64,000 nucleotides of DNA from Candidatus Latescibacterota bacterium. GTDB taxonomy: Bacteria > Latescibacterota > UBA2968. Every line of letters starts with the position of its first letter. The stretch's first letter is position 1. Location of the stretch: the NCBI GenBank assembly GCA_965207885.1, contig OZ242311.1, forward strand, positions 4,832,001 to 4,896,000, in the 5' to 3' direction. Made by a program: the position numbers and the translations under genes. Of this stretch, positions 1,994-14,830 are shown piece after piece. Under the pieces are notes generated by a model that was not told the origin of the DNA, did no database searches, and was given only the letters and a program-made list of their open reading frames with translations.

Positions 1994-2101
1994 CAGGTTT
2001 TACCTTCTAAAATACATTTCACAAAGATGGTTTGGTAAACAGTTTTTCGCCTTTTCTATACCCGGTTCTGCACTGGTAGTATGTGGTATAATGCTTTGAG
2101 G

Positions 2102-3310
2102 TCATGCAGGAATATTGAAGACGAGCACGGTGAGTATGATTTCCCTGTTTGCATCATCGCGGTGGCTGAGTATGTACCGAAAACCAGTCTCTGAGTCATA
2201 GTCCCTATTCGTTTTGTAGTTAGGATGGTCTTTAACTGCTTCGGGTATCCTCTTGAGGACGGTGGACATCTCGGCGTCTCGATTGAACACGAGAAGGGCG
2301 ATCTTCGTATCCCTCCAGGTAGAGTAATTCAGCAACTGATCGATGGATTTTCTGAATGCCTTTGGACCTTTCCAAAATTTGCATTCAGCGATGAATATGT
2401 TTTTACCCCCTACGCGGATTAGGATGTCAGTCTTGCCATCGAAGTTAAAGGTTTCGGCTGTGGCCTGTCCCTCATAGTGACCATTGAGCTGTACGAGAAA
2501 GTGTTGCCGCAGGTCCTCCTCTTTCATGTCTTTGAAAGCCTTAGGACTGCGCTCAATGACCATGACCATGTCTGAAACGATTGATAGGATATGTTCATAC
2601 TCTTGCATATCCAGTGCGGGTTCGGGTTTGTAGGGTGCCATGGAGGCTGGCGGAAGTTTCGGAGTGATAACCCGTTTCACTTGCGACGCAATATAGGTAA
2701 TGGGTGTATCGTTCCTGCGCCGGAGTGGGAAACCTATATTCTCCACCAGATCTCTATCCCTGAGTATTTTCTCACGTCTGGCTTTGATTCCTTCAGACGC
2801 CGTTTCACGAATTGACGAGTTGAATGATGTAACATCCCCCTCAACCCATTTCAGGTAATTTTTTAAATTCGCCAGTTCCGACTTGAACTCACTCTCAATT
2901 TGCGCGGCTTCAGAGGTTGTCCGCTCGTATATCATCTCAATCTCGCTGTCTCCCACGTCTGCGCGTGGCGGGTTGAAGTTAAAGTGCGATGGCTGTAGCT
3001 CGAATAGACTTGGATCGCCCGTGAATGGTATGTAAAACGTGATACTGGTTCCCGTTACAGATTGAGTACGTCCGTAATCCCATCTATAGCTTACGTCGAT
3101 CTCAGCATCGTCGTAATCTGCTTGGATTTGCAATTCATCAATTTGAAGTGCTTCTACTTTGTATTTTTCGATAAAGTAGTTACACAGGTCTTCTTCTGAA
3201 GTATTGAGTATCCGGTTTTCATCGAGTGAATTAATCTCATCACGCATCTTTTGCCCTTGAGTGCGGAGGGCATCGCTAAGATATCCCCCATTGAATAGTA
3301 AGTCTGTCAC
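2102..3310 (-). CDS. PD-(D/E)xK restriction-endonuclease-fold protein (402 aa), putative defence nuclease
   Basis: C-terminal EEDLR...ETFN..GKTDILIR....IFIAECKFW...IDQLLNY pattern (D...ExK...Q...Y); GTG start with GGAGG RBS. Confidence 0.7.
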   Translation of the reverse strand: MTDLLFNGGYLSDALRTQGQKMRDEINSLDENRILNTSEEDLCNYFIEKYKVEALQIDELQIQADYDDAEIDVSYRWDYGRTQSVTGTSITFYIPFTGDPSLFELQPSHFNFNPPRADVGDSEIEMIYERTTSEAAQIESEFKSELANLKNYLKWVEGDVTSFNSSIRETASEGIKARREKILRDRDLVENIGFPLRRRNDTPITYIASQVKRVITPKLPPASMAPYKPEPALDMQEYEHILSIVSDMVMVIERSPKAFKDMKEEDLRQHFLVQLNGHYEGQATAETFNFDGKTDILIRVGGKNIFIAECKFWKGPKAFRKSIDQLLNYSTWRDTKIALLVFNRDAEMSTVLKRIPEAVKDHPNYKTNRDYDSETGFRYILSHRDDANREIILTVLVFNIPA

Positions 3311-3479
3311 TGTTTCAGTACCTCCGTTTGCATCTATTGGTTATTTTTTTCAGTAATACTTATCCAGTTCTTATAGGATATTAGAGGTATATAATTTTTT
3401 AATGATGCACAAATATACCAAAGGAGCAGTTTAACACTCAAAAGAAATTTAATATTTCGAATATTTTTTGCCCTTGTCT

Positions 3480-4472
3480 CTACAAAAATTTTTCACCGGC
3501 ATGATCTGTGAACGAATCGGCATCGCGGATGTATTTCATTACAGTTGAGGGATTTGTGTGTCTGGTGATTTCCATTATTTTATCTAAGCGAGCATTGTGA
3601 CAAGCCGCGCTGGTAACAAAACCAGCCCTTAATGAATGTCCTGATATTTCCTTCTCATCTAAGCCACTTAATTTCGCATAATGTTTAACTAAGCGGGGAA
3701 TATCCGAATGGTGCATTGGTTTGCCTCGCAGTGTGCCCCCACGCCTCATTGTCTGAAATACAGGACCATCAGTAATTCCCGATGCTTCCAGCCAATCTTG
3801 CAGCCTTTGTATAGGCTTTAAGTACTTGCCTCCTGGTATAGCGATCTTATGCCCTTTCCCTTCTTGATCTGTCTTTGACTTGCGAATATAGAGAAACATT
3901 TTTTTTCTACCATCTGGGGATGGTATGATTTCAATATCATCTGTTGTAAGTCCGCATATCTCTGATCGCCTAAGTGCACCAGCGAATCCAATAGCAATGA
4001 TTGCGGCGTCCCGTAGGCAGATTAATTTTTTCCCTACCTGATTTGCCGTCAGGTCACATATGTTCAGCATTTTTTTGATATGATATTCTCTTAACGCCTT
4101 GACCTGGCGGCAGGCTGAGCCTCTAAGCCGCGCAAGACCTTTCACAACAGCATTGACATTAGGATGGTTAGTAGGGGATGGGATTCCTAATTCAACATAT
4201 TTCCTATTGATTGCGCTCCGATATAAAACTACTGTACCCATAGAAAGTATTTTTCCACTTGCCGGTCTGGGACGTGTCGCCAGTTCAATCATAAAATTAG
4301 CAATGTCTTTTGGTGTGGCGGATAAAGAGCAGATGTTTTGCGAATCACAATAATCGCTAAAACAAGACCAACCTTTGTCATAGGCGATACGGGTATTGTC
4401 CGCTAAAGCGGATGAAACCACCTCGCTATAAAAGTCTATTTTGATTGCATTAGCCTGAGAAGATGATGTCAT
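3480..4472 (-). CDS. Tyrosine site-specific recombinase/integrase (Cre-like)
   Basis: N-terminal core-binding region (LADNTRIAY...W..F); catalytic motifs ALRRSE, KSKTDQ, SGHSLRAG, TRH...VMKY; AGGAG RBS. Confidence 0.93.
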   Translation of the reverse strand: MTSSSQANAIKIDFYSEVVSSALADNTRIAYDKGWSCFSDYCDSQNICSLSATPKDIANFMIELATRPRPASGKILSMGTVVLYRSAINRKYVELGIPSPTNHPNVNAVVKGLARLRGSACRQVKALREYHIKKMLNICDLTANQVGKKLICLRDAAIIAIGFAGALRRSEICGLTTDDIEIIPSPDGRKKMFLYIRKSKTDQEGKGHKIAIPGGKYLKPIQRLQDWLEASGITDGPVFQTMRRGGTLRGKPMHHSDIPRLVKHYAKLSGLDEKEISGHSLRAGFVTSAACHNARLDKIMEITRHTNPSTVMKYIRDADSFTDHAGEKFL

Positions 4473-4533
4473 TTTGAACTCCTGAGAATTGATTTGGATT
4501 GTACTAAATTGTTGAAACTATAAATATAAATAG

Positions 4534-5310
4534 TCAGAGATAAAAAATATTATCAAGGAGTTATCTATTAACTACGGAATTAAGACTCGTTACAATGAGG
4601 CTTTTATCATTGATAATCAGACTAAGGAGAGATTAATTATCCAAGATTCTAAATCTGCTGAAATCATTAGGCCAGTATTGCGAGGAAGGGATATTAGCCG
4701 TTACAAGGCTAACTGGGCGGGATTGTGGTTGATTGACACTCATAACGGATACGGTGATATTTCCGCTGTTGATATTGACGACTACCCGGCCATCAAAAGC
4801 CATCTGGACATATTCTACCCAAAACTGGAAAAACGCTACGATAAAGGCAGAACACCTTACAATCTCCGTAATTGCGCTTACCATGCAGAGTTCAAAAAAG
4901 AAAAATTGGTGTGGATTGAACTGGTCGAAAATGGGCGCTTTGCCTATGACCACAGCGGGATATACTGTGAAGCCACATCCTTTATAATGACCGGCGATTG
5001 CATCAAATATCTCTGCGTCTTGCTGAATGCAAAGTTAATACGCTGGTTTCTTCAGAAGACAGCACCAACATCGGGTATGGGAACTTTACGCTGGAAAAAA
5101 GCTTATGTTGAAACAATTCCCGTCCCCCAATTATCAGCGAGAGAGCAGTACCTGTTTATTGAACTAATGGAGCATATCCTGACGGCTAAAGCGACTGATC
5201 TGAATGCCGATATATCAGCTACTGAATCCGAGATTGACCTGCGGGTTTACGAATTGTATGGACTGACGGCGACAGAGATCTCCGCAGTGGAAGATCAGCC
5301 TTTACTATAG
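4534..5310 (+). other. Silent (no ATG start) alternative C-terminal target-recognition cassette of the RM gene, TaqI-C-like, in inverted orientation
   Basis: Open frame begins after the TAG at 4531-4533. It translates KELSINYGIKTRYNEAFIIDNQTKE...KSAEIIRPVLRGRDI...CAYH..F.KEKL.W...GRFAYD...IKYLC.LLN..LI.WF...SGMG..RW, colinear with the last ~260 aa of the 5376-9116 gene. Confidence 0.88.
4603..4628. repeat. Inverted repeat, left arm (TTTATCATTGATAATCAGACTAAGGA)
   Basis: 25/26 match to the reverse complement of 6085-6110, including a perfect 17-bp block; contains the dyad TTATCA-N-TGATAA. Confidence 0.8.
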
Positions 5311-5375
5311 ACAATCAACGTGGCAACTCACAAAGCTATGTTTTTGCGCTATTTAGAATTTGATTTACTCAGGAT

Positions 5376-8300
5376 TTATCTTTTACCGCTTACCGCAGCG
5401 ATTTCTTTTTCGTCCAGATAGTAGAGGGTGTAGACTAGCCGGTCTATCTCTACCTCATGCTCGCTGACATCGGCTGTTGGATTAGAGGCTTTGGCCTTCA
5501 AGATGCGATCAACCAATCGTATGAACGAAACTTGCTCTGCTACAGTGAGTTTCGGAATAGGGATTGATTCTACGGAAGCATTAATCCATCTCGTAACACC
5601 CATTCCAGAATTCATGGCAGTGTTCTTCATAAACCAAGTTATCAGATTAGAATTAAGTAGGGCGCATAAATATTTGATTGATGGACCTGACATAATAAAT
5701 GCCGTGTTTAAGCAGAACAGACCATCCACATCATAGGCAAAACGTCCTTGTTCTGTCAGATCCATCCAGATCAGCTTTTCTTTGGAAAAATCTGTATGGT
5801 AAGCGCAAGTATCCTGTAATTCGTACCAAGCATGTGTAGTCTTTTTTCTTGACTTCGTGCCATTCGGAAGAGTTTTACCCGACTGTTCTAATCGCGTTTT
5901 GCCAAAAGACAGCAGATGCCTTTTCACTTCTGGATAGTCATCAATGTTGAGGCCAATAGCAGGAAATGTTGCTATCAGCCAGAGTTTTGTACTTTCCCAA
6001 TCAGCTTGATACCTCTGAATATCCCTCCCTCTTAAGACTGGCCTAATAATCTCAGCCGACTTTGGATCTTTTTTAACCAGTGCTTCCTTAGTCTGATTAT
6101 CGATGATAAAGGCACTATTATAACCGGTTAAAACTCCTCGGTAAATAGATATATCCCACTCCTTCAGCGGCACTCCAACGGTTTCCATCTTGTCCATAAT
6201 GGGTTGCTCTATGGCTGAAAGTGCGCTCCAGGGCTTTTCGCTCTGTGGTTGAAATGTCCCCCATAAGTGCTCAGCGGGCGGAAAGTTTTTATTGGATAAG
6301 TGGTCCATATCCACTGCCTTACCGGTCTCATTGCTTTTGCCTTCGCGTATTATCAGTATATTGGTGTCAACAATAGCATTTTCAAAAATGTCCTTGCCCA
6401 TTTCCAGCAATTGTAATGGTGTCTGTTGTTCGGAAAAGTAGCGGCGTGTGGATTTGCCGTACTCTGCTCTCAGCCAGCTATTGGAAGTGATAAAGCATAG
6501 CAAGCCACGTTGTGGTGTGAGCAATTGGCAGCCTTTTTCGTAGAAAAGTTGATAGATATCACCGGTGGAGGCAAAGGTTTCAAAATCAGCGTATTGATAA
6601 CGGCGTCGCAGTTCCCCTCTGTTTTTTTGCAGTTGAATGTACGGCGGATTCCCGATGACCATATCAAAACCGCGCGTTATGCCGAACATATACTCGGGAT
6701 CAAACCAGTCGGCTTTTGCATTTTGGTCGTACGGTTTCCAGTGGGCGACTTTTTGTGCGGTCTCAAGGCTGGCATCGAAACGTTTTTCGCGCAGACTATA
6801 CTTTTTTAGCTCATCTTCACGCAATTTTTTTCTGTCTTTCGGGTTGGGAATCTGGGCAACTCTTTCGTCTATGTCCCGTTGCTGGCGCGTTGCCCATTCT
6901 TCTTTTTGTGCTTTCAGTGCTTGATCCAATTGGTCACGGCAGGCTTGCTCCTCGCGGGTGTATTGAAGCTTTTGTGGTCGGTTGTTTGCGAGAAAATACT
7001 TTTCACGAATCGCCTCAATTTCTTTTAGCAATTGCTGTACAGTGTCATCTTGAAGTAGAGATCTGGCTTCGGATAGCTGTAAACCGATCAGCGTATCTGC
7101 TGCGACAAAGCGTGTCTCTAAATTCGGCAGGGGCTTGATGCCGAAGTTGTCGGCATTCTTATCTTGTTCTTGCTCAATTGCCAGCGAAATGAAAAAACGC
7201 AGTTTGGCGATCTGGCAAGCAATAGGCTGGATGTCCACGCCGAAGATGCTGCTTTGAATCAGGTATAGCTTACGCCCAAAGTCGCCCGAATATCGCTCGA
7301 AGGTTTCGCTAATTTCCAGCAATTCGGCATAGCGTTCTTGTTGGTTTTTGGTCTCAAACGCCGCGTCTGCCTTTGCTTTGGCGCGTTCTTTTTGCAGGGC
7401 TTCCCAACGAGTGTTGTCGGGATCAATTCGCCGCAATGCCAGGGTGAGTTTGTGCAGCATGCCCATCGGAAATGCACCGGAACCAACCGCGGGATCCAGC
7501 ACTTTGATCTCTGCAATCGCCCGCACAATGCCCTCTGCTTCTTCTTCCTCAAAAAGCTCTTTGGCGTCGTCGAATGCGTCCTCATAATCCAGCAGATAAC
7601 GCAAGCGTTCTTGCCAGAAGGCCCTGTCGCCATCGGTAGGCTGGCTGTTCTCGGTGAGTGATGCCATTAGGGCCTCATCTACCATGTAGTCCACCACGGG
7701 GCGCGGGGTATAGTAAGAGCCAGTCTGTTTGCGGGCTGTTTCGCGTGTCTCAGGGTTGTAAGCTGCCAGCAGGTTTTCAAATACCTTGCCGAGCAGTTCA
7801 GGATCGAGTGCGACTTCCTGCTCTATAGGGGTGTTCTCTTCCACCGTGAACTTGTAATTTTCGAATAAGGTGATCAGCCCGTTGGCACCAAAAAACAGGC
7901 GGTTGGGAATAGAATAGTCACGGCGCTGGGTGGGGTTGTCGGTAAAGCAGTCCAGACGAGTGCCACCGGCTTGGACGCCTTCAAAGCTGTCCAGGCAGTC
8001 AAACAGGCCACCGTTGATAAAGGGCGTCTGATTGAAGAGTTGGCGTAGGCCATCTGAGTCGGCCATCTCTTCCTTGTATCGGTACACGGAGGGATTGCGG
8101 TGGTCGGTACGATTCTGTTTGCTGAAACGACGCTTTTCAATCTCGGTGTTCAGGGTGGCGAAAAACAGGTTTTGCAACACAGCGCGGTAGTAGGAGTCGC
8201 CGGTTTCGTGGTCGTAATTTTTTAGGAGGTCACGAACCTTATTCTTTATGAACAGGTCCTCGGCGATCAGCCCCTTTTCTTTGATAAACCAGACGAATAG

Positions 8301-9116
8301 CAGGCGGGTAATGAGGCGGATGACGTGTTCTTCCGATGATATGGTCTGTGTCTGATTCTTGGGAAAAGTGGCTTCCGCGATAGCGCGCTCAAACCAGTTG
8401 TACAAATCCCGATAGAATTGACGGTTGAGTTCCTGGGTATCCAGTTTGGCCAGCTAGGCGGCGAGCAAGCCATCAAAATTGTGCGATTTGTTGTGATCGT
8501 TCATCCACGTCAGCAGATTTGATAGGGATAATTCCTCAAGGATATCCAGATGTGCACGATACGGCTTATTGGGATGAATATCTTTAATCAATGTGACGCT
8601 CTCCAGCACGTTCCGAGTGTTATCGCGCTTGTGCGGGCGGCGGTGAACAAAGGCGAGGGTGAGCAGGTTGGATGGGGTTCGGAAAAGTACGACGGAGGGT
8701 TGGCTCAAGCGCTTGTTAATCTCGCGGGTGAATTCCGCGTACTGCCCGCGAGCATAGGTGTCTTTCTTCAGTTCTACGGCGGAGAAGATAAAACTACTTG
8801 TGTTGCCCTTGTCAAAAGAAGCTGGTTCAAAAATCAGCGTCTGCTGATTACTGGAAGCGATTTCATCGCTGGTAAGCTGAAAAATGAACCGCACGGATTG
8901 GGCGTTTTCACAGAATGCCTGCTCGGTCTTGGTGTTCTCGTTTGGAGCGGGAAATTGCTGGATGAAGTCTTCTGGATGACCCGAAAGTTCCAACGTGCGA
9001 TCACTCTGGTATCCAAGGACTTTCAGTAGGTCTTTAGTCGTCGCCAGAAAATCGCTATCAGGTATCGTTGCCAGAGCCGATAGAATCTGTTCCTTTGGTT
9101 GAATAACACTGCTCAT
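5376..9116 (-). pseudogene. Type IIG/Eco57I-like RM protein (N-terminal REase-like domain + N6-adenine MTase + TaqI-C-like TRD), interrupted by one in-frame TAG at 8454-8456
   Basis: Motif I VLDPAVGSGAF, motif IV VIGNPPY, TGSYYTPR. ORFs 8454-9116 and 5376-8405 share a frame (3741 nt = 1247 codons). The TAG aligns with TGG (Trp) in the paralogous domain of 9239-10879. The MTase part might still be expressed from TTG at 8405. Confidence 0.85.
6085..6110. repeat. Inverted repeat, right arm, inside the MTase gene (encodes FIIDNQTKE)
   Basis: TCCTTAGTCTGATTATCGATGATAAA is the reverse complement of the left arm with one mismatch; same reading frame in both cassettes. Confidence 0.8.
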
Positions 9117-9238: not shown

Positions 9239-10879
9239 TCAATAGTTTATCTTATAGGGCCATGTAATCAGCGTCTCCAGCGCCTGGTAACTCATTCGAC
9301 GGCGCAGTTTGCTGAGTGCTTGATTCTTGATTTGGCGGATGCGCTCGCGTGTGAGATTCATCATGGCACCGATTTCCTGGAGCGTTAGGGGGCCGTTGTC
9401 ATTAAGGCCAAAATAGAGCCTGATAACGCGCGATTCGTGCTCTTTGAGAAGCCCCAGGGCTTGCATCAGCGCTGATTTGCGCAAGATGTCGGCGTCAAGA
9501 GGAGTTGTCGTGTTATCGGTCAGGGTGTCAAGCAGGCTGTGATTGTCGTCAGAGAGGGATTCGTCGAGAGAGTACACGTCGAAGTCGCTGAGGATAGTCT
9601 CTTGGATCTTCTTGACTGGAACTTCAAGCTCGGTGGCGATTTCTTCCAGGTCCTCTTCAGCCGGAACTTCAAGTTCGGCGGCGATTTCTCCTATATCAGG
9701 CTCACTAACCCAGTCTTGGCCCAGTTTGCGCGAGGCTTTGGAAATTTCCCTGAGCAAGCCGACCTTGTTGTGGGGGAGACGCACGATACGCGCCTGCTCG
9801 GCGAGCGTTTGGTGAATAGATTGGCGAATCCACCAGACCGCATAGGTAATAAATTTGTTGCCCCTCGTCCCATCGAAGCGGTCAGCCGCCGTAATCAGTC
9901 CGAGATTGCCAGCGCTAATCAAGTCAGAGAGGGGCAGACCGAGGTTCTGGTATCTCTTGGCCTCGTTAATGACAAAGCGCAAATTCGCCTGGATCATTTC
10001 ATCGCGGGCGCGCATGTCGCCACTTTTGATGCGGTCAGCCAGTTCTACTTCGCGCTCCCTCGAAAGCGGTGTGGACTCAGCAATGTCGTCGAAGTAAAGT
10101 CGCAGATTGTTCGTCTCTCCTTCTGGGATTTTTTTTTCGGACACCGCCTGTTCAAACCAGGAGAACATATATCGGTAGAATTGCCGGTTGCGCTCTGTGG
10201 CGTCCAGTTTGGCAAGCCAGGCAACCAGCAAGCCTTCGCAGTTGTGTGGCTTGGCATTGGAATTCATCCACACGGTACACTCGGGTAGTGATAGCTGGGA
10301 CAAGATGTCGATATCGGTACGCCGTGGATTCTCTAAAGAAATATCCTTGCTCAACGACGTGACGCGCTCCAGCACATCACGGCTATCATCAAGCTTATGC
10401 GGACGGCGACCAATAACCGCGACGGTCAAGCGTGCTCCAGCGCGGAAGAAGACCACGGTTGGCAAGATTATTCGCTTGCCGATCTCCCGCGTTAATTCGT
10501 CATATATCCCCCGGGCATAGTTGTTCTCCTTAAGTTCCACGGCGAAGAAGAGAACGCTTTTCTGCCGGCCCTCCTTACGGGAAGTACCCTCAAGCCCAGA
10601 CGTCTGCTGATTAGCTGAGAGGATTTCGTCATTTGTCATCTGAAAGACGATCAGTATGGATTGGACGTGCTTGCGGAATGTCTGTTCAGTGCTGGTGTTC
10701 TCATTTGGGGCGGGAAATTGCTGAATGAAATCCTCTGGATTGCCTGATTGGTCAGGCAAGATGCGCTCGCTCTGGTACCCGAGAACATTGAGAAGATCTC
10801 TGATTGCCGATAGAAAATTTTTGTTGGACACACCGACCAAAGTAGCTTGAATACGCTCTTTGAGGTCGCCATTGTTCAT
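9239..10879 (-). CDS. Fusion: RM-protein N-terminal-domain paralogue (~aa 1-250) + RpoD/RpoS-type sigma-70 factor (regions 1.2-4)
   Basis: Sigma motifs LRLYFDDI, ANLRFV, DLISAGNLGLI.AADRFD..RGNKFITYAVWWIRQSI, RIVRLP, SLDE, TLQEIG..MNLTRERIRQI...AL.KLR. The N-terminus aligns with 8454-9116 (VLGYQS, PEDFIQQFPAPNENT, AVELK...YARG, RRPHK, LAKLD...NRQFYR). Confidence 0.92.
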   Translation of the reverse strand: MNNGDLKERIQATLVGVSNKNFLSAIRDLLNVLGYQSERILPDQSGNPEDFIQQFPAPNENTSTEQTFRKHVQSILIVFQMTNDEILSANQQTSGLEGTSRKEGRQKSVLFFAVELKENNYARGIYDELTREIGKRIILPTVVFFRAGARLTVAVIGRRPHKLDDSRDVLERVTSLSKDISLENPRRTDIDILSQLSLPECTVWMNSNAKPHNCEGLLVAWLAKLDATERNRQFYRYMFSWFEQAVSEKKIPEGETNNLRLYFDDIAESTPLSREREVELADRIKSGDMRARDEMIQANLRFVINEAKRYQNLGLPLSDLISAGNLGLITAADRFDGTRGNKFITYAVWWIRQSIHQTLAEQARIVRLPHNKVGLLREISKASRKLGQDWVSEPDIGEIAAELEVPAEEDLEEIATELEVPVKKIQETILSDFDVYSLDESLSDDNHSLLDTLTDNTTTPLDADILRKSALMQALGLLKEHESRVIRLYFGLNDNGPLTLQEIGAMMNLTRERIRQIKNQALSKLRRRMSYQALETLITWPYKINY

Positions 10880-10936: not shown

Positions 10937-11236
10937 TTAAGTTACGTGGCTCAGGGTTGAGGCAGGGCGGATGCCAGCGGTAAGCCGAGGCTTTTCGCTG
11001 GCCAGTTTGCGAAAGTTGCACTCGACCTGAAGTCCGTGCCAAAATTCGTCGGACTGGCCGAAGAAGGCACCAAAGCGAATTGACATAGCTGGCGTGATCG
11101 AACGCCGGGCGTGAACGATTTCGTTGATCGTCTGCGGCGCAACACCGATGGCGCGGGCCATGGCATTTTGCGAAATTCCCATTGGCTTGAGGTACTCTTC
11201 CAGGAGAATTTCACCGGGCGTGATGGGTGTTTTCAT
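10937..11236 (-). CDS. higA: HigA-family antitoxin (HTH)
   Basis: [20 protein letters not shown]...INEIV..RRSIT...FWHGLQ; probable start MKTPIT at 11236. Confidence 0.92.
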
Positions 11237-11264
11237 GATTGCACCATATAATGTATAAGGGTTG

Positions 11265-11543
11265 TCAATGATAGTCAACGATAGCTACTTCCGCTGGTCC
11301 GGAATCCGTCCATCGAAAGACGATACGCCATTGGTCGTTGATCCGTATAGAGTGAAAGCCCGACAGATTGCCTCTGAGAGCTTGTAAACGATTGCCCGGA
11401 GGGACAGCGAGATCGCTGAGTGTGCGAGCCTGATTCATTTGTATCAATTTTCGCAATGCAACGCGAGATATAGCTGCAAAACGACGGTTATGTTCGGAGT
11501 AGAACAGTTCTTCAGTATCCCGGTTTGCGAAGGATTGAATCAT
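11265..11543 (-). CDS. higB: HigB (RelE/ParE-superfamily) toxin
   Basis: MIQSF...[14 protein letters not shown]...[17 protein letters not shown]...IVDYH; the start ATG overlaps the helicase TGA (ATGA). Confidence 0.92.
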
Positions 11544-14500
11544 GGTGTGTGCATCCCCGAATCGAGGATGATTAACCACGTTACCAACTCAAAATCACCA
11601 GTAGAATTTTCAGATTTTACTGGCAATCTAAAATCGCTCTGACCGTGAATGCCCATTCCCTGGATCTGTGTTGAGGTGTTTGCCCTGTTGATGTGCTTCA
11701 TAACCTCGTCCAGCAATTGATCGTAGCGGACCATGTCCTTGCCGTTTTGGGTTTCGTGGTCAAACTGGTCACAGAGCTTTTGCAGTGGCTCGGTTTTGCC
11801 AATGGCTGCGGATTCAAATAATTCCAGCACTCGTCTGGCATTGGCACAACCGTAGCGAATGTCGCCGCTATCGCGGATATACACGGCGTAATAAGGATGA
11901 ATTGGGCTGGCTACTTTTTCGCGTTTATCCTCGCTGGCGTTGCGCTGGCGCAGGAAGAATATCACGCCCGGCCTTGTGGAATCGCTCCCACCGTCGGTCA
12001 GAGCATAGGCTCCATAGGGCGTTGCCTCCAGTTCTGCTTTGTTTTGTTCTAAATATCGCAACAATTGGGCAAAGAAGTAATCGAGGGTGAAATCGCTCAG
12101 GACGACGCCGTCGGATAACTCGTCAAAGTCCAGCACTTCTTCACGCAATTTTTTTAATTGTTCGTCGCGGAAGTTGAGTTCCATTTGCGCTTCTTCAAAG
12201 GCGTATTCGTTCAACGGGTCATCGTCACCGCTGGCCGCTGCGTCTGCCAGAGCCATGCGCGCTTCTACGCGGCTTTGCAGGCGTAAATAGGCGTCCATGT
12301 CTTTGGTGGGCCAGTAGTTGATCATTTGCACGGATCGGTTGCGGCTGCCAATGCGGTCAATGCGTCCAAAGCGCTGGATGATGCGTACGGGATTCCAGTG
12401 GATGTCGTAGTTGAGCACGGTGTCGCAGTCTTGCAAATTCTGCCCCTCCGAGATACAGTCGGTGGCAATGAGCAGATCAATTTCTCCGTCCACGCCGTTG
12501 CCGCGTTGGCGTGCGCGTGGGGCAAAGTTGGTCAAGATGGCGTTGAAGTTATTATCGCCAAAAGAGGTGTGTGTCGCGTCACCGGATACCATTGCCATGT
12601 TCAATCTGTGTTCTTTTGCCAATTCTGCCAGGTTTTCGTAAAGATATTCCGCTGTATCCTTAAAGGTGGTGAATACCAGCATCTTGCGGTTGATCTTGCT
12701 GTCCTGATCAGTCGTCGGATTTTGCGCCTTACCCTGAATGTGTTCCCGAATGGTTTTGAGCTTGTCATCTCGTGGCGGTGTGATGGCACGGACCTTTTCC
12801 CAGGCTGCTGTGAGGGTTTGCTTGTCTTTTAGTAAGTCTTTTTTCCAGCGAGGCAAATCCAATTCGCGCAGGTGGTAGGGAGTGCGCGCCCGATTGATCA
12901 GAAACTCCTCGTCATCTTCATCTTCGTCGGGCAGTATATCGGCCTGTGCATCCTGTATCGTGGGTTTCTGCTCGTAGCGATGTATCTTGTCTAATAGATC
13001 GTCGATTTTACCGATGGTACGCCAGAGTGTTTCCGTGAGCGCATGCGCGGAACTCTCCAGACGTTTGAGAAAGTTCGTCTGCATCATGCCAATGAGAAAG
13101 CGCTCGCGGTCTGCCTGATTGAACCGCAGTTGTTTTTTTTCATCCGCCAACCGTTTCTTTGCCTCTGCGCTGGTGACATAGCTGGATGGCTGGTAGATGG
13201 ATAGGGCGAATTGACCTATCTGATTGGCCAAATCCCGATAGGACAGTTCGCCTCTTATGTCGGTTTGTGGATAGACATTATCCGGTGCCTGTTGTGTGGG
13301 AAATCTGCCGATTCTGTCTATTTCCCGGGCGTAAAACGTCTTGATCTGTCGCCGCGAGCGGGCAATGGAGACGCCGCCCAGTAAATGAAAGAAATCAGGA
13401 CCCAGCTTATCTAACAATTCAGCCTTATCTCTTTTTGTAGTTGAATTATTCTCCCAGGCCTTAAACTCCTTTTGCGCCCGCCCCAGCAAGGTCCCGATAT
13501 GCCCAATGCCCAGGCTGTTGCGGAATACATCCTCGCGCTTTTCGGTCATTAAATAGATTTGATTGCGCAGGTCAATAAGCGAGGTGTTGACCGGTGTCGC
13601 CGAAAGCATCAGTACTTTGGTTTGGGTGCCTTCCTTGATCACCTCCTCCAACAGCCGCGAGTAGCGGCTATGGCGAATATTGCCGTCGTCGTCTCTGCGA
13701 GGTTTTGATTCATTGCGGAAGTTATGGGATTCATCGATAACCACCAGATCGAAATTGCGCCAGTTGAAATTTGCCAGATCGATAGTGCCTACTTCTCCGC
13801 TATTGCGGGACAAATCGGTGTGCGATAGCAGCGTGTAACCGAAGCGGTCATCGTCGAAAGGATTGCTGGTATGGGAGTTATACGCCGGATACAGTGCCCA
13901 ATTTTCGCGCAGCTTTTTCGGGCATAAGACCAGCACCCGCTCGTTTCGCAATTCAAAAAATTTGATCGCAGCTAATGCCGTGTAGGTTTTTCCCAGCCCT
14001 ACGCTGTCGGCTAAGATACAGCCATTGTGCCGCAACAGGCGGCCGATAACGCTTTTGGCTCCGTCTTTCTGGAAATCGTATAGCTTGTTCCAAATTTGGG
14101 TATCGTAGAGGTGTGTATCCTCCAGTTGGCTTTCGCCCCTTTGTCTATCTTCTATGTCTTCGCGGAACAATTCGTAGAGTGTTTTGTAATAGATAAACTC
14201 TGGCGCGTGGTCTTTACCGATTCGCGCCAGTGCGCGCAGTACATCCCTTTTCACATTTCTGGTCAAATCCTCGTCTGTCCACAGTTCGTCAAACCAGGCG
14301 CTGAGTTCGTCGCGTATTTCAGTGTCGCCAGTCGCCAGGTTGATTTCCACATTTGCACTCGTTCCACAGCCCAAACCGCTCCGGGTAAAGTTGGAACTGC
14401 CGACCACTGCTGCGCCGCCGTTTTCAGATTCGGTGAGATACATTTTGCCGTGCAAAAAATTGGATTTGCTAACAGATCGAATTTTGACCCTTCTGCTGCG

Positions 14501-14830
14501 TACCCATTTGGCGCATTGCTGTGCGAGATATTTTTGCTGTAATGCGTGATTGGGCGAGAGTTGACCTTCGATTAACTCAAAAGATTTTTCCGTTTTCTCG
14601 CTGGGATCTACTTCGCCAACCGATGCTGGGTCGCCAAAGAGAAAGCGCACATCCTTTACATTCTGCAATTCGTTTTGCAGGGCATCGTACCCGTAAATGG
14701 TAAAATACGCCGATACCAGCCGGAATATGTCCGCGGTGGGCAGATGTGCGCGTAGATAATCGACGACCGTATCGAGGCGATTGTCTAAGATATGTTTGTC
14801 TTTTTGCGTTTTGGTATCCTGCTGTGTCAT
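11540..14830 (-). CDS. SNF2-like superfamily 2 helicase with N-terminal phospholipase-D-like nuclease domain
   Basis: PLD-like LHGKMYLTE...GSSNFT; [36 protein letters not shown]. Confidence 0.92.

Follow-up and report, generated by a model that had tools for sequence, protein, structure and literature searches.

The pneumococcal ivr (SpnD39III) locus is a Type I hsdS locus in which a tyrosine recombinase, several pairs of inverted repeats and half-domain cassettes yield several methylation specificities. The locus described here lies in a stretch of 64,000 nucleotides (nt), referred to as the window, from the genome of an uncultured sponge-associated bacterium of the Candidatus Latescibacterota; all coordinates are positions within that stretch. 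It consists of a single-chain Type IIG-like restriction-modification gene, a partial inverted copy of the end of that gene, and the gene of a tyrosine recombinase. It resembles ivr in the tyrosine recombinase, the pairs of inverted repeats and the reshuffling of half-domain cassettes. It differs from ivr in having no HsdS, HsdM or HsdR, and in varying a fused methyltransferase at its C-terminus rather than a separate specificity subunit.

Programmed inversions of Type II and Type IIG restriction-modification genes were described by Milman et al. (NAR 2023; PMC9881135), with 11 loci confirmed by long reads. As that article describes them, the targets of inversion are DISARM-like methyltransferases, homologues of the Type IIG Cj0031 of C. 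jejuni, and BREX PglX, and two of the Cj0031 homologues adjoin a phospholipase D (PLD) plus SNF2 helicase gene. The Bacteroides ovatus locus is an example with this neighbour. By those descriptions, the published loci and the present one are alike in the single-chain methyltransferase-recognition gene, the partial inverted copy, the adjacent recombinase, the PLD/SNF2 helicase gene nearby (here 11540-14830) and the co-existence of variants in the sequencing data. The long-read-confirmed loci belong to Actinobacteria, Bacteroidetes, Firmicutes and Proteobacteria and this one to Latescibacterota, a comparison made by description only. The BREX type 1 PglX of Lacticaseibacillus rhamnosus, in the same article, undergoes nested inversions, two of which are needed to swap an internal piece. 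Nested inversions would likewise exchange part of a large adenine methyltransferase at the present locus; unlike in PglX as described there, it is the C-terminus itself that is exchanged, so the products of one inversion are complete frames. Because of these inversions of Type II/IIG genes, the locus belongs to an already published type of switch, as far as the article's descriptions go. An earlier note on this DNA, made from the sequence alone, had called such inversion much less familiar for single-chain Type IIG genes, which does not hold in view of the 11 confirmed loci. The supplements of the article may hold related loci, and a literature search that had those supplements outside its range found no description of invertible restriction-modification for sponge symbionts. 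Possibly new here are the lineage, the natural-population evidence, the design with two sites and a binary-by-polymorphic code, and the spread across a host-associated community.

We conclude that the locus is very probably an active DNA-inversion switch of target specificity, in which a Cre-like recombinase acts on short inverted repeats (IR). The case is made by contig data and by related genomes rather than by the repeat alone. The parts of the locus are as follows.

3480-4472, minus strand: Cre-like tyrosine recombinase of 330 residues, the predicted invertase, outside the invertible segment.
4534-5310, plus strand: silent, start-less recognition-domain cassette with a short first half ("V1") and its own C-terminal half; stop codon at 5308-5310.
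4562-4569, with partner 6144-6151, plus strand: outer conserved block TATCTATT (8-bp TATCYATT), at which arm homology starts and the exchange in the related genome G014 has its outer limit.
4603-4628, plus strand: left arm of IR1, 26 bp, with a perfect 17-bp core at 4612-4628; contigs end or start at 4628 and 4612 in three runs.
4629-6084, no strand: invertible segment between the IR1 cores, 1456 bp, with both recognition-domain tails and the spacer 5311-5375.
4872-4884, plus strand: left arm of IR2, a 13-bp perfect core over C-A-Y-H codons.
5376-8405, minus strand: Type IIG-like methyltransferase and recognition-domain frame, 1009 codons from the first TTG, with a long first half ("V2") at present.
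5796-5808, minus strand: core of the right arm of IR2.
6085-6110, minus strand: right arm of IR1, within the expressed gene, core 6085-6101; contigs end or start at 6101 and 6085 in three runs.

The product of 5376-8405 has a gamma-class N6-adenine methyltransferase domain with the NPPY motif (GNPPY in the translation) and a C-terminal target recognition domain. It matches Pfam Eco57I (E 3.6e-34), N6_Mtase (1.1e-10) and, for the recognition domain, TaqI_C (9.7e-15, residues 789-950), and PADLOC REase_MTase_IIG at 3.4e-144. It was also considered as a BREX PglX and rejected at 70.6 bits for NCBIfam BREX_1_MTaseX against a cut-off of 500; PADLOC scores for PglX and for DISARM DrmMI are ~1e-20 versus 3.4e-144 for REase_MTase_IIG. 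The partners BrxC, PglZ and DrmA/B have no match among the open reading frames scanned in 1-20600 (11 with PADLOC, 16 with Pfam).

The cassette frame is open from 4534 for 258 codons, behind a TAA at 4531-4533, and the earliest start that it could use is a TTG at 4678. Aligned to the last 260 residues of the gene product it shows 135/262 identities (52%, E 5e-88). It matches Pfam TaqI_C (E 6.5e-14) and PADLOC REase_MTase_IIG (E 1.6e-64), in the latter covering just the last 270 profile positions. Gene and cassette stand tail-to-tail with a spacer of 65 nt, 5311-5375, between their stops. A full-length gene with a promoter-less, start-less inverted partial copy is the arrangement of gene-altering programmed inversions. 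Scans for promoters (17 promoter-like sites versus 10.1 expected) and for terminators (2 terminator-like sites versus 6.2 expected, with 0 in the spacer 5311-5375) were not usable.

A repeat search finds inverted arms at 4557-4717 / 5996-6156 (161 nt, 71%) and at 4869-4949 / 5731-5811 (81 nt, 75%), around IR1 and IR2. Overall, the arms are 55% identical over 798 columns, and the longest perfect runs are 17, 13, 11 and 11. The 26-mers of IR1 differ by a single mismatch, T/C at 4611 / 6102. In gene and cassette alike, the 17-bp core, lying over the conserved peptide FIIDNQTKE, opens at codon position 1, which places the inverted repeats at homologous in-frame positions, as in programmed inversions. 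The earlier note had read most of this anatomy correctly. The start-less copy of the C-terminus inverted downstream of the gene, the 26-bp repeat in the same frame with its one mismatch and 17-bp block, the TTATC...GATAA dyad (as TTATC-NNN-GATAA), and the quoted peptide differences with the shared TATCTATT are all present in the sequence. Its ~1.5-kb inversion swapping the C-termini in frame comes to 1456 bp, for which the hybrid made in silico is an open frame of 1000 codons. The tyrosine recombinase that it placed beside the cassettes is the one at 3480-4472, with the catalytic set intact by alignment to Cre. IR2, the inner repeat, was not treated there as a crossover site.

The mechanism that we propose is that the recombinase pairs the two copies of an IR, one inside the gene and one at the head of the promoter-less cassette, and would invert the DNA between them. 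Inversion at IR1 would turn 1456 bp and replace the last 241 codons of the gene by 232 codons of the cassette, in frame. The part replaced would be the TaqI_C-type recognition domain, and the methyltransferase, along with the nuclease where the gene is intact, would then read another motif. Inversion at IR2 would exchange the second half of the recognition domain separately. Since the two halves would exchange separately at IR1 and IR2, up to four enzymes could come from one locus. Judging from the sequence, this recombinase presumably catalyses the inversion, and the inversion would change the target specificity; its purpose would presumably be to diversify phage defence or methylation patterns.

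The junctions were followed in contigs (k=31) of three runs, X19, X20 and X22, from one sample and the same organism. Four runs of that sample ("organism A") contain 0.99 of the words sampled from 3400-7400, and three of them were used; X1-X18, which are metagenome runs holding 0.09-0.24 of the words, were left out of the junction analysis. The sample is probably the one from which the genome itself was assembled. In all three runs, the contigs tile the locus as 3400-4628, a 43-nt contig at 4599-4641, 4612-6101, another 43-nt contig at 6072-6114, and 6085-6501. The tile 4612-6101 is one unbranched contig at full depth, and the 43-nt junction contigs have about 2/3 of its depth. Because the arms have just 17 identical bases, and no common 31-mer, branch points at the core need real alternative 31-mers. 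The depths are these.

X19: left reference junction 49.6, right 45.5, flank depth 71-80.
X20: left reference junction 43.8, right 50, flank depth 64-72.
X22: left reference junction 100, right 100, flank depth 144-151.

The reference junctions amount to ~64-70% of the flank depth in X19, X20 and X22. X20 has an extra 43-nt contig, at depth 27.7, which aligns to 4603-4641 except for one differing letter and leaves 4 letters unaligned. This is the form that the gene-side flank joined through the core to the variable part of the cassette should have; the gene-side flank is distinguished by a C at the mismatch position and by other bases at 4599 and 4602. The two junction depths of X20, 43.8 and 27.7, sum to about the flank depth. 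Since these depths add up and there is no other branch in the tiling, both forms have identical flanks. Among the contigs listed, all three runs tile 3400-6501 (3.1 kb) without a branch away from the two cores. Roughly 1/3 of the molecules in the sample carry the inverted segment, with the crossover within 4612-4628, and both orientations co-exist in one population, as seen in the contigs of one sample.

Low-depth contigs (4-8) with T>C at 5795 lie beside the IR2 cores in three runs, the sole other-letter row among the contigs listed. A contig of 6436 nt in X19, at depth 4.2, joins 4893 to 5787 on the same strand. It was considered as an IR2 inversion and rejected, matching just ~40 nt per side (4855-4893 and 5787-5828) at ~90%, and is treated as another locus or organism. 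In run X23, of a related "organism B", a 67-nt contig over 4562-4628 stands at ~2x the flank depth (8 versus 2.9-3.1), which suggests that the outer repeat of that strain is perfect over 67 bp.

Of 61 genomes searched at the DNA level, namely 60 relatives and the window's own, 22 gave matches. Two of them, G014 and G019, are of the window's genus, with recombinases 97% and 94% identical and methyltransferase cores 91% and 89% identical to those of the window. The variable part of the window's cassette (4629-4868) sits in the expressed gene of G014 (96%) and G019 (92.5%), and the window's expressed variable part (5812-6084) sits in their silent place (93% and 92%). In both genomes, the centre of the locus is colinear with the window; this covers the spacer, the two arms of the inner repeat and, in each copy, the codons of the second half. 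By sequence comparison, this net arrangement equals that expected from one outer and one inner inversion, swapping just the first half of the recognition domain; for such a swap the second repeat, IR2, would be needed. The inner limit of the exchange falls within ~21 nt around the 13-bp core in both genomes, and in G019, the expressed copy switches type within or beside the 26-mer.

One genus other than the window's contributes a pair, G031 and G049, set apart by a single clean inversion at this core. The leader of 60 columns ahead of it stays with its position (90-100% identity), and from the end of the core to the stop codons the sequence matches the opposite position, at 80-100%. Concerted evolution is visible in the repeats, where bases specific to a species are common to both arms of one genome. 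The core sequence varies between lineages and is identical between the arms within each genome, and synonymous sites of the core, which vary in switch-less homologues, are identical between the arms in switch loci. In G049 (L019 2719-4309), both the expressed and the silent cassette have frameshifts, seen as split tblastn matches with single-base indels; they may be assembly errors or signs that the switch is decaying in G049. In G004 (L027), the silent cassette is split into 5778-6002 and 3964-4524, which lie ~1.25 kb apart, and the recombinase is at 6032-7030.

The recombinase matches Pfam Phage_integrase (E 1.1e-16), and among solved structures Cre is the closest to it (E 6.9e-09 over residues 39-322). 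The R, the K, the H-x-x-R, an H (W315 in Cre) and Tyr314 align with the catalytic residues of Cre. The catalytic set is intact, and the gene adjacent to the cassettes is predicted to encode a site-specific recombinase with an intact active site, as in programmed inversions. Its scores fall under the equivalog cut-offs of XerC, XerD and XerA, and because of this, it was not taken for any of them. It is the single close copy in the 6.23-Mb single-contig genome. The likeness to Cre extends to the structure match and the catalytic residues; unlike in loxP, no 13-8-13 dyad was found by eye around the core, only the short TTATC-NNN-GATAA dyad.

The linkage of the recombinase to the inverted cassette was followed in homologous loci. 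Of 18 regions scored from relatives and the window's own genome, 6 are complete switch loci, 2 are cut by contig ends, and 10 are without an inverted cassette. The recombinase is present in 6/6 of the complete loci versus 0/10 of the switch-less homologues (1.6-4.5 kb fetched downstream). The window's own genome (G000) has two more homologues of the Type IIG gene, at C1:6085944-6086591 (L032) and C1:5244242-5245920 (L033); neither has an inverted cassette or recombinase in the fetched regions, and the L033 match ends at query residue 698. Starting from relatives of the recombinase gave 45 loci, 42 with a full-length recombinase. The order methyltransferase-recognition domain, inverted recognition domain, recombinase is found in 20 of the 42, fragments only in 4, and none of it in 18. 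The invertible-switch reading of the earlier note is supported by this linkage, by the two junction forms found in the contigs when both orientations were looked for, and by the relatives in opposite states.

By their record titles, the recombinase loci come from metagenome-assembled genomes of Latescibacterota, Thermodesulfobacteriota, Poribacteria, Dehalococcoidia, Caldilineaceae, several Gammaproteobacteria, Binatia, Rhodothermales, Opitutales and Nitrospirales; the nearest relatives of the window's genome are titled Candidatus Latescibacterota. The recombinases of the same-genus genomes G012 and G004 are ~60% identical to that of the window, and those in genomes titled Thermodesulfobacteriota or Poribacteria are 73-75% identical. 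The G+C content at 2001-6000 is 0.42-0.43 versus ~0.5 or more further on. Together, these identities and the lower G+C content point to horizontal transfer of the locus.

Across 23 switch loci, perfect arm runs of at least 12 nt occur at two hot spots only, in arms with an overall identity of 54-65%. There is an IR1 run in 22/23 loci (9 to 148 nt) and an IR2 run in 21/23 (12 to 45 nt). When the cassettes were split at IR1 and IR2 on one alignment, with 6 of 46 not anchored and dropped, each of the 19 loci with two anchored cassettes paired a short first half, V1, with a long one, V2. For the second half, the number of types is 14-27, according to the threshold chosen, and 7/7 of the types with more than one member pair with both V1 and V2. 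The expressed copy is V1 in 10 loci and V2 in 10, counts that are descriptive and carry no test because the loci are kin.

Relatives of the recombinase (62-65% identical) also occur away from restriction-modification genes in L062, L064, L063, L068, L070 and L072. In L062 and L064, the recombinase lies between two divergent TonB-dependent receptor genes, and in L063, L068, L070 and L072, it adjoins very large RTX-repeat genes. It is flanked by inverted repeats in L064 (795-nt arms at 83%), L062 (27 nt) and L072 (28 nt). These loci may be other inversion switches. We hold it possible, and put it forward tentatively, that the recombinase and silent cassette form a horizontally mobile "specificity kit" across sponge-associated bacteria titled under at least nine phyla or classes. 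The kit would impose a two-level code, a binary V1/V2 choice times a polymorphic second half at two fixed sites, on Type IIG systems often found beside an HKD-SNF2 gene, and the same recombinase family may flip TonB-receptor and RTX-repeat genes.

On its N-terminal side, the Type IIG gene is interrupted in the window, and the features concerned, with the helicase gene further along, are these.

8454-8456, minus strand: in-frame TAG splitting the Type IIG gene; a Trp codon in 14/14 homologous loci.
8457-9116, minus strand: detached N-terminal 220 residues; structure model with a predicted local distance difference test score (pLDDT) of 88.6.
11540-14830, minus strand: HKD (phospholipase D-like) plus SNF2 helicase gene; Pfam PLDc_2, Helicase_C and ResIII, and PADLOC HKD+Snf2 at 3.6e-110.

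The detached N-terminal part probably corresponds to a Type IIG nuclease domain. It is not in the same polypeptide here, and the 220 residues are fused in 14/14 homologous loci. Its product has no Pfam, NCBIfam or PADLOC match. The best structural match of the model is a weak one to residues 2-142 of DrdV (Z 5.7, root-mean-square deviation 4.1, 122 aligned); other scores are Z 4.0 for BpuSI and Z 3.4 for Hjc (VIA-align), and Foldseek with this model returned nothing at E 0.001 or better. With respect to a PD-(D/E)XK nuclease fold, these Z scores all lie under the level at which a shared arrangement would be excluded. Because the TAG detaches these residues, restriction activity has possibly been lost, and the enzyme here may be methyltransferase-only or dead. 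Given the TAG, the switch may now work on a methyltransferase-only product or a pseudogene. The HKD-SNF2 gene is likely the partner of the Type IIG gene, and in many related loci, it lies directly upstream of the Type IIG homologue.

Other genes around the locus were noted as well. At 9239-10879 on the minus strand, a gene of 546 residues joins a sigma-70 factor to a domain 52% identical to the detached 220 residues, of which it is a paralogue. The sigma-70 part is complete (regions 1.2, 2, 3 and 4), and the gene has sub-threshold PADLOC and NCBIfam matches to the MZA defence-associated sigma factor MzaA. The same fusion also adjoins the system in G014, G031 and G005 (L016, L018 and L021). A HigB-like toxin and helix-turn-helix antitoxin pair lies at 10937-11579 on the minus strand, between the HKD-SNF2 helicase and sigma fusion genes. 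On the other side, the 402-residue gene at 2102-3310 (minus strand) matches the PADLOC candidate defence protein PDC-S54 at 1.3e-158, with no Pfam or NCBIfam match, and it adjoins the recombinase in G014 and G019 too.

A number of points weigh against reading the locus as an active switch of specificity. The IR1 of the window is by itself suggestive rather than decisive: runs of at least 17 also arise by chance, in 1.3% of shuffles by column and in 7.2% of shuffles by codon, so the repeat on its own is just weakly beyond chance. At 17 bp, it is also at the short end of the family, versus up to 148 bp elsewhere. The junction evidence comes from assembled contigs of one sample, the kind of run being unrecorded, rather than from raw reads, and the alternative junction is displayed for one run (X20) among the contigs listed. 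No branch at IR2 was seen among the listed contigs of this organism, contigs being apt to drop rare variants. In G014, the outer limit of the exchange is not the core, but the TATCYATT block ~45 nt outside the 26-mer; the crossover point has therefore not been the same in every past event, and some exchanges may owe something to gene conversion or horizontal replacement. The suggestion of the earlier note that the true crossover could lie further out is partly borne out, by G014; in this organism the crossover is within the 17-bp core. The structure model of the recognition domain is poor (mean pLDDT 64.7). And with the TAG as the assembly reads, the system may be non-functional here.

Each of the other accounts of the locus draws on some of these points. 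One is that the repeat is mere conserved coding sequence in the duplicated tails of paralogues, with no inversion at all. The core does lie over the conserved peptide FIIDNQTKE, and a 17-nt run turns up in 7% of codon shuffles, but the contigs branch, and the alternative junction contig sits, exactly at the core; relatives show reciprocal swaps, and the synonymous core sites are identical between the arms in switch loci only. We find this account scarcely credible. A second is that general homologous recombination inverts the segment and the adjacent recombinase is unrelated, for example a mobile-element integrase. Many loci offer RecA long perfect repeats, the longest of them 148 bp, exchange limits vary among the relatives, and the low G+C of 2001-6000 looks acquired. 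However, the crossover in this organism falls within a 17-bp core, and 17 bp is shorter than efficient RecA pairing requires; the recombinase, moreover, goes with the inverted cassette in 20/42 of its relatives, titled under many phyla, and in 6/6 switch loci versus 0/10 switch-less ones. Nor was an attachment site or a tRNA context seen, though no search aimed at one was made. We regard this account as very improbable.

It is somewhat easier to entertain, though still improbable, that two co-existing sub-strains are each fixed in one orientation, so that the contigs record an old polymorphism rather than ongoing switching. The three runs come from one environmental-type sample, in which contigs cannot tell clonal switching from a mixture of strains (a further point to be held against an active switch), and either state can be fixed in the assemblies of relatives. 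Yet 3400-6501 is tiled without another branch among the contigs listed, and the junction depths add up to the flank depth; because of both, the sub-strains would have to be identical over 3400-6501 in everything but orientation. The homogenisation of the arms within each genome likewise argues for recurrent exchange. A decaying relic, in which the gene is broken by the TAG and the remaining flips have no phenotypic consequence, is unlikely but carries more weight. For it are the TAG at 8454-8456 against Trp in 14/14 homologous loci, repeats among the shortest in the family, and the cassette frameshifts of G049. Set against these, the 1009-codon frame and the 258-codon cassette are fully open, the recombinase is intact, inversion is evidently ongoing or recent, and a methyltransferase-only restart at the TTG at 8405 is possible. 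The relic bears on the consequence and not on the mechanism, and can be compatible with the switch.

Taken as an active switch, the locus would be a recognition-domain inversion switch on a single-chain gene, at work in a natural population that belongs to an uncultured lineage, and its crossover core would be just 17 bp long. From the comparisons comes a rule, open to testing, on how these enzymes are put together: the recognition domain has two halves that exchange separately, one of them binary and the other polymorphic. The data suggest, in addition, that bacteria of one host-associated community exchange defence specificities even when unrelated. Assemblies of such genomes would catch an arbitrary state of the switch, and methylation motifs called from them may be mixtures.

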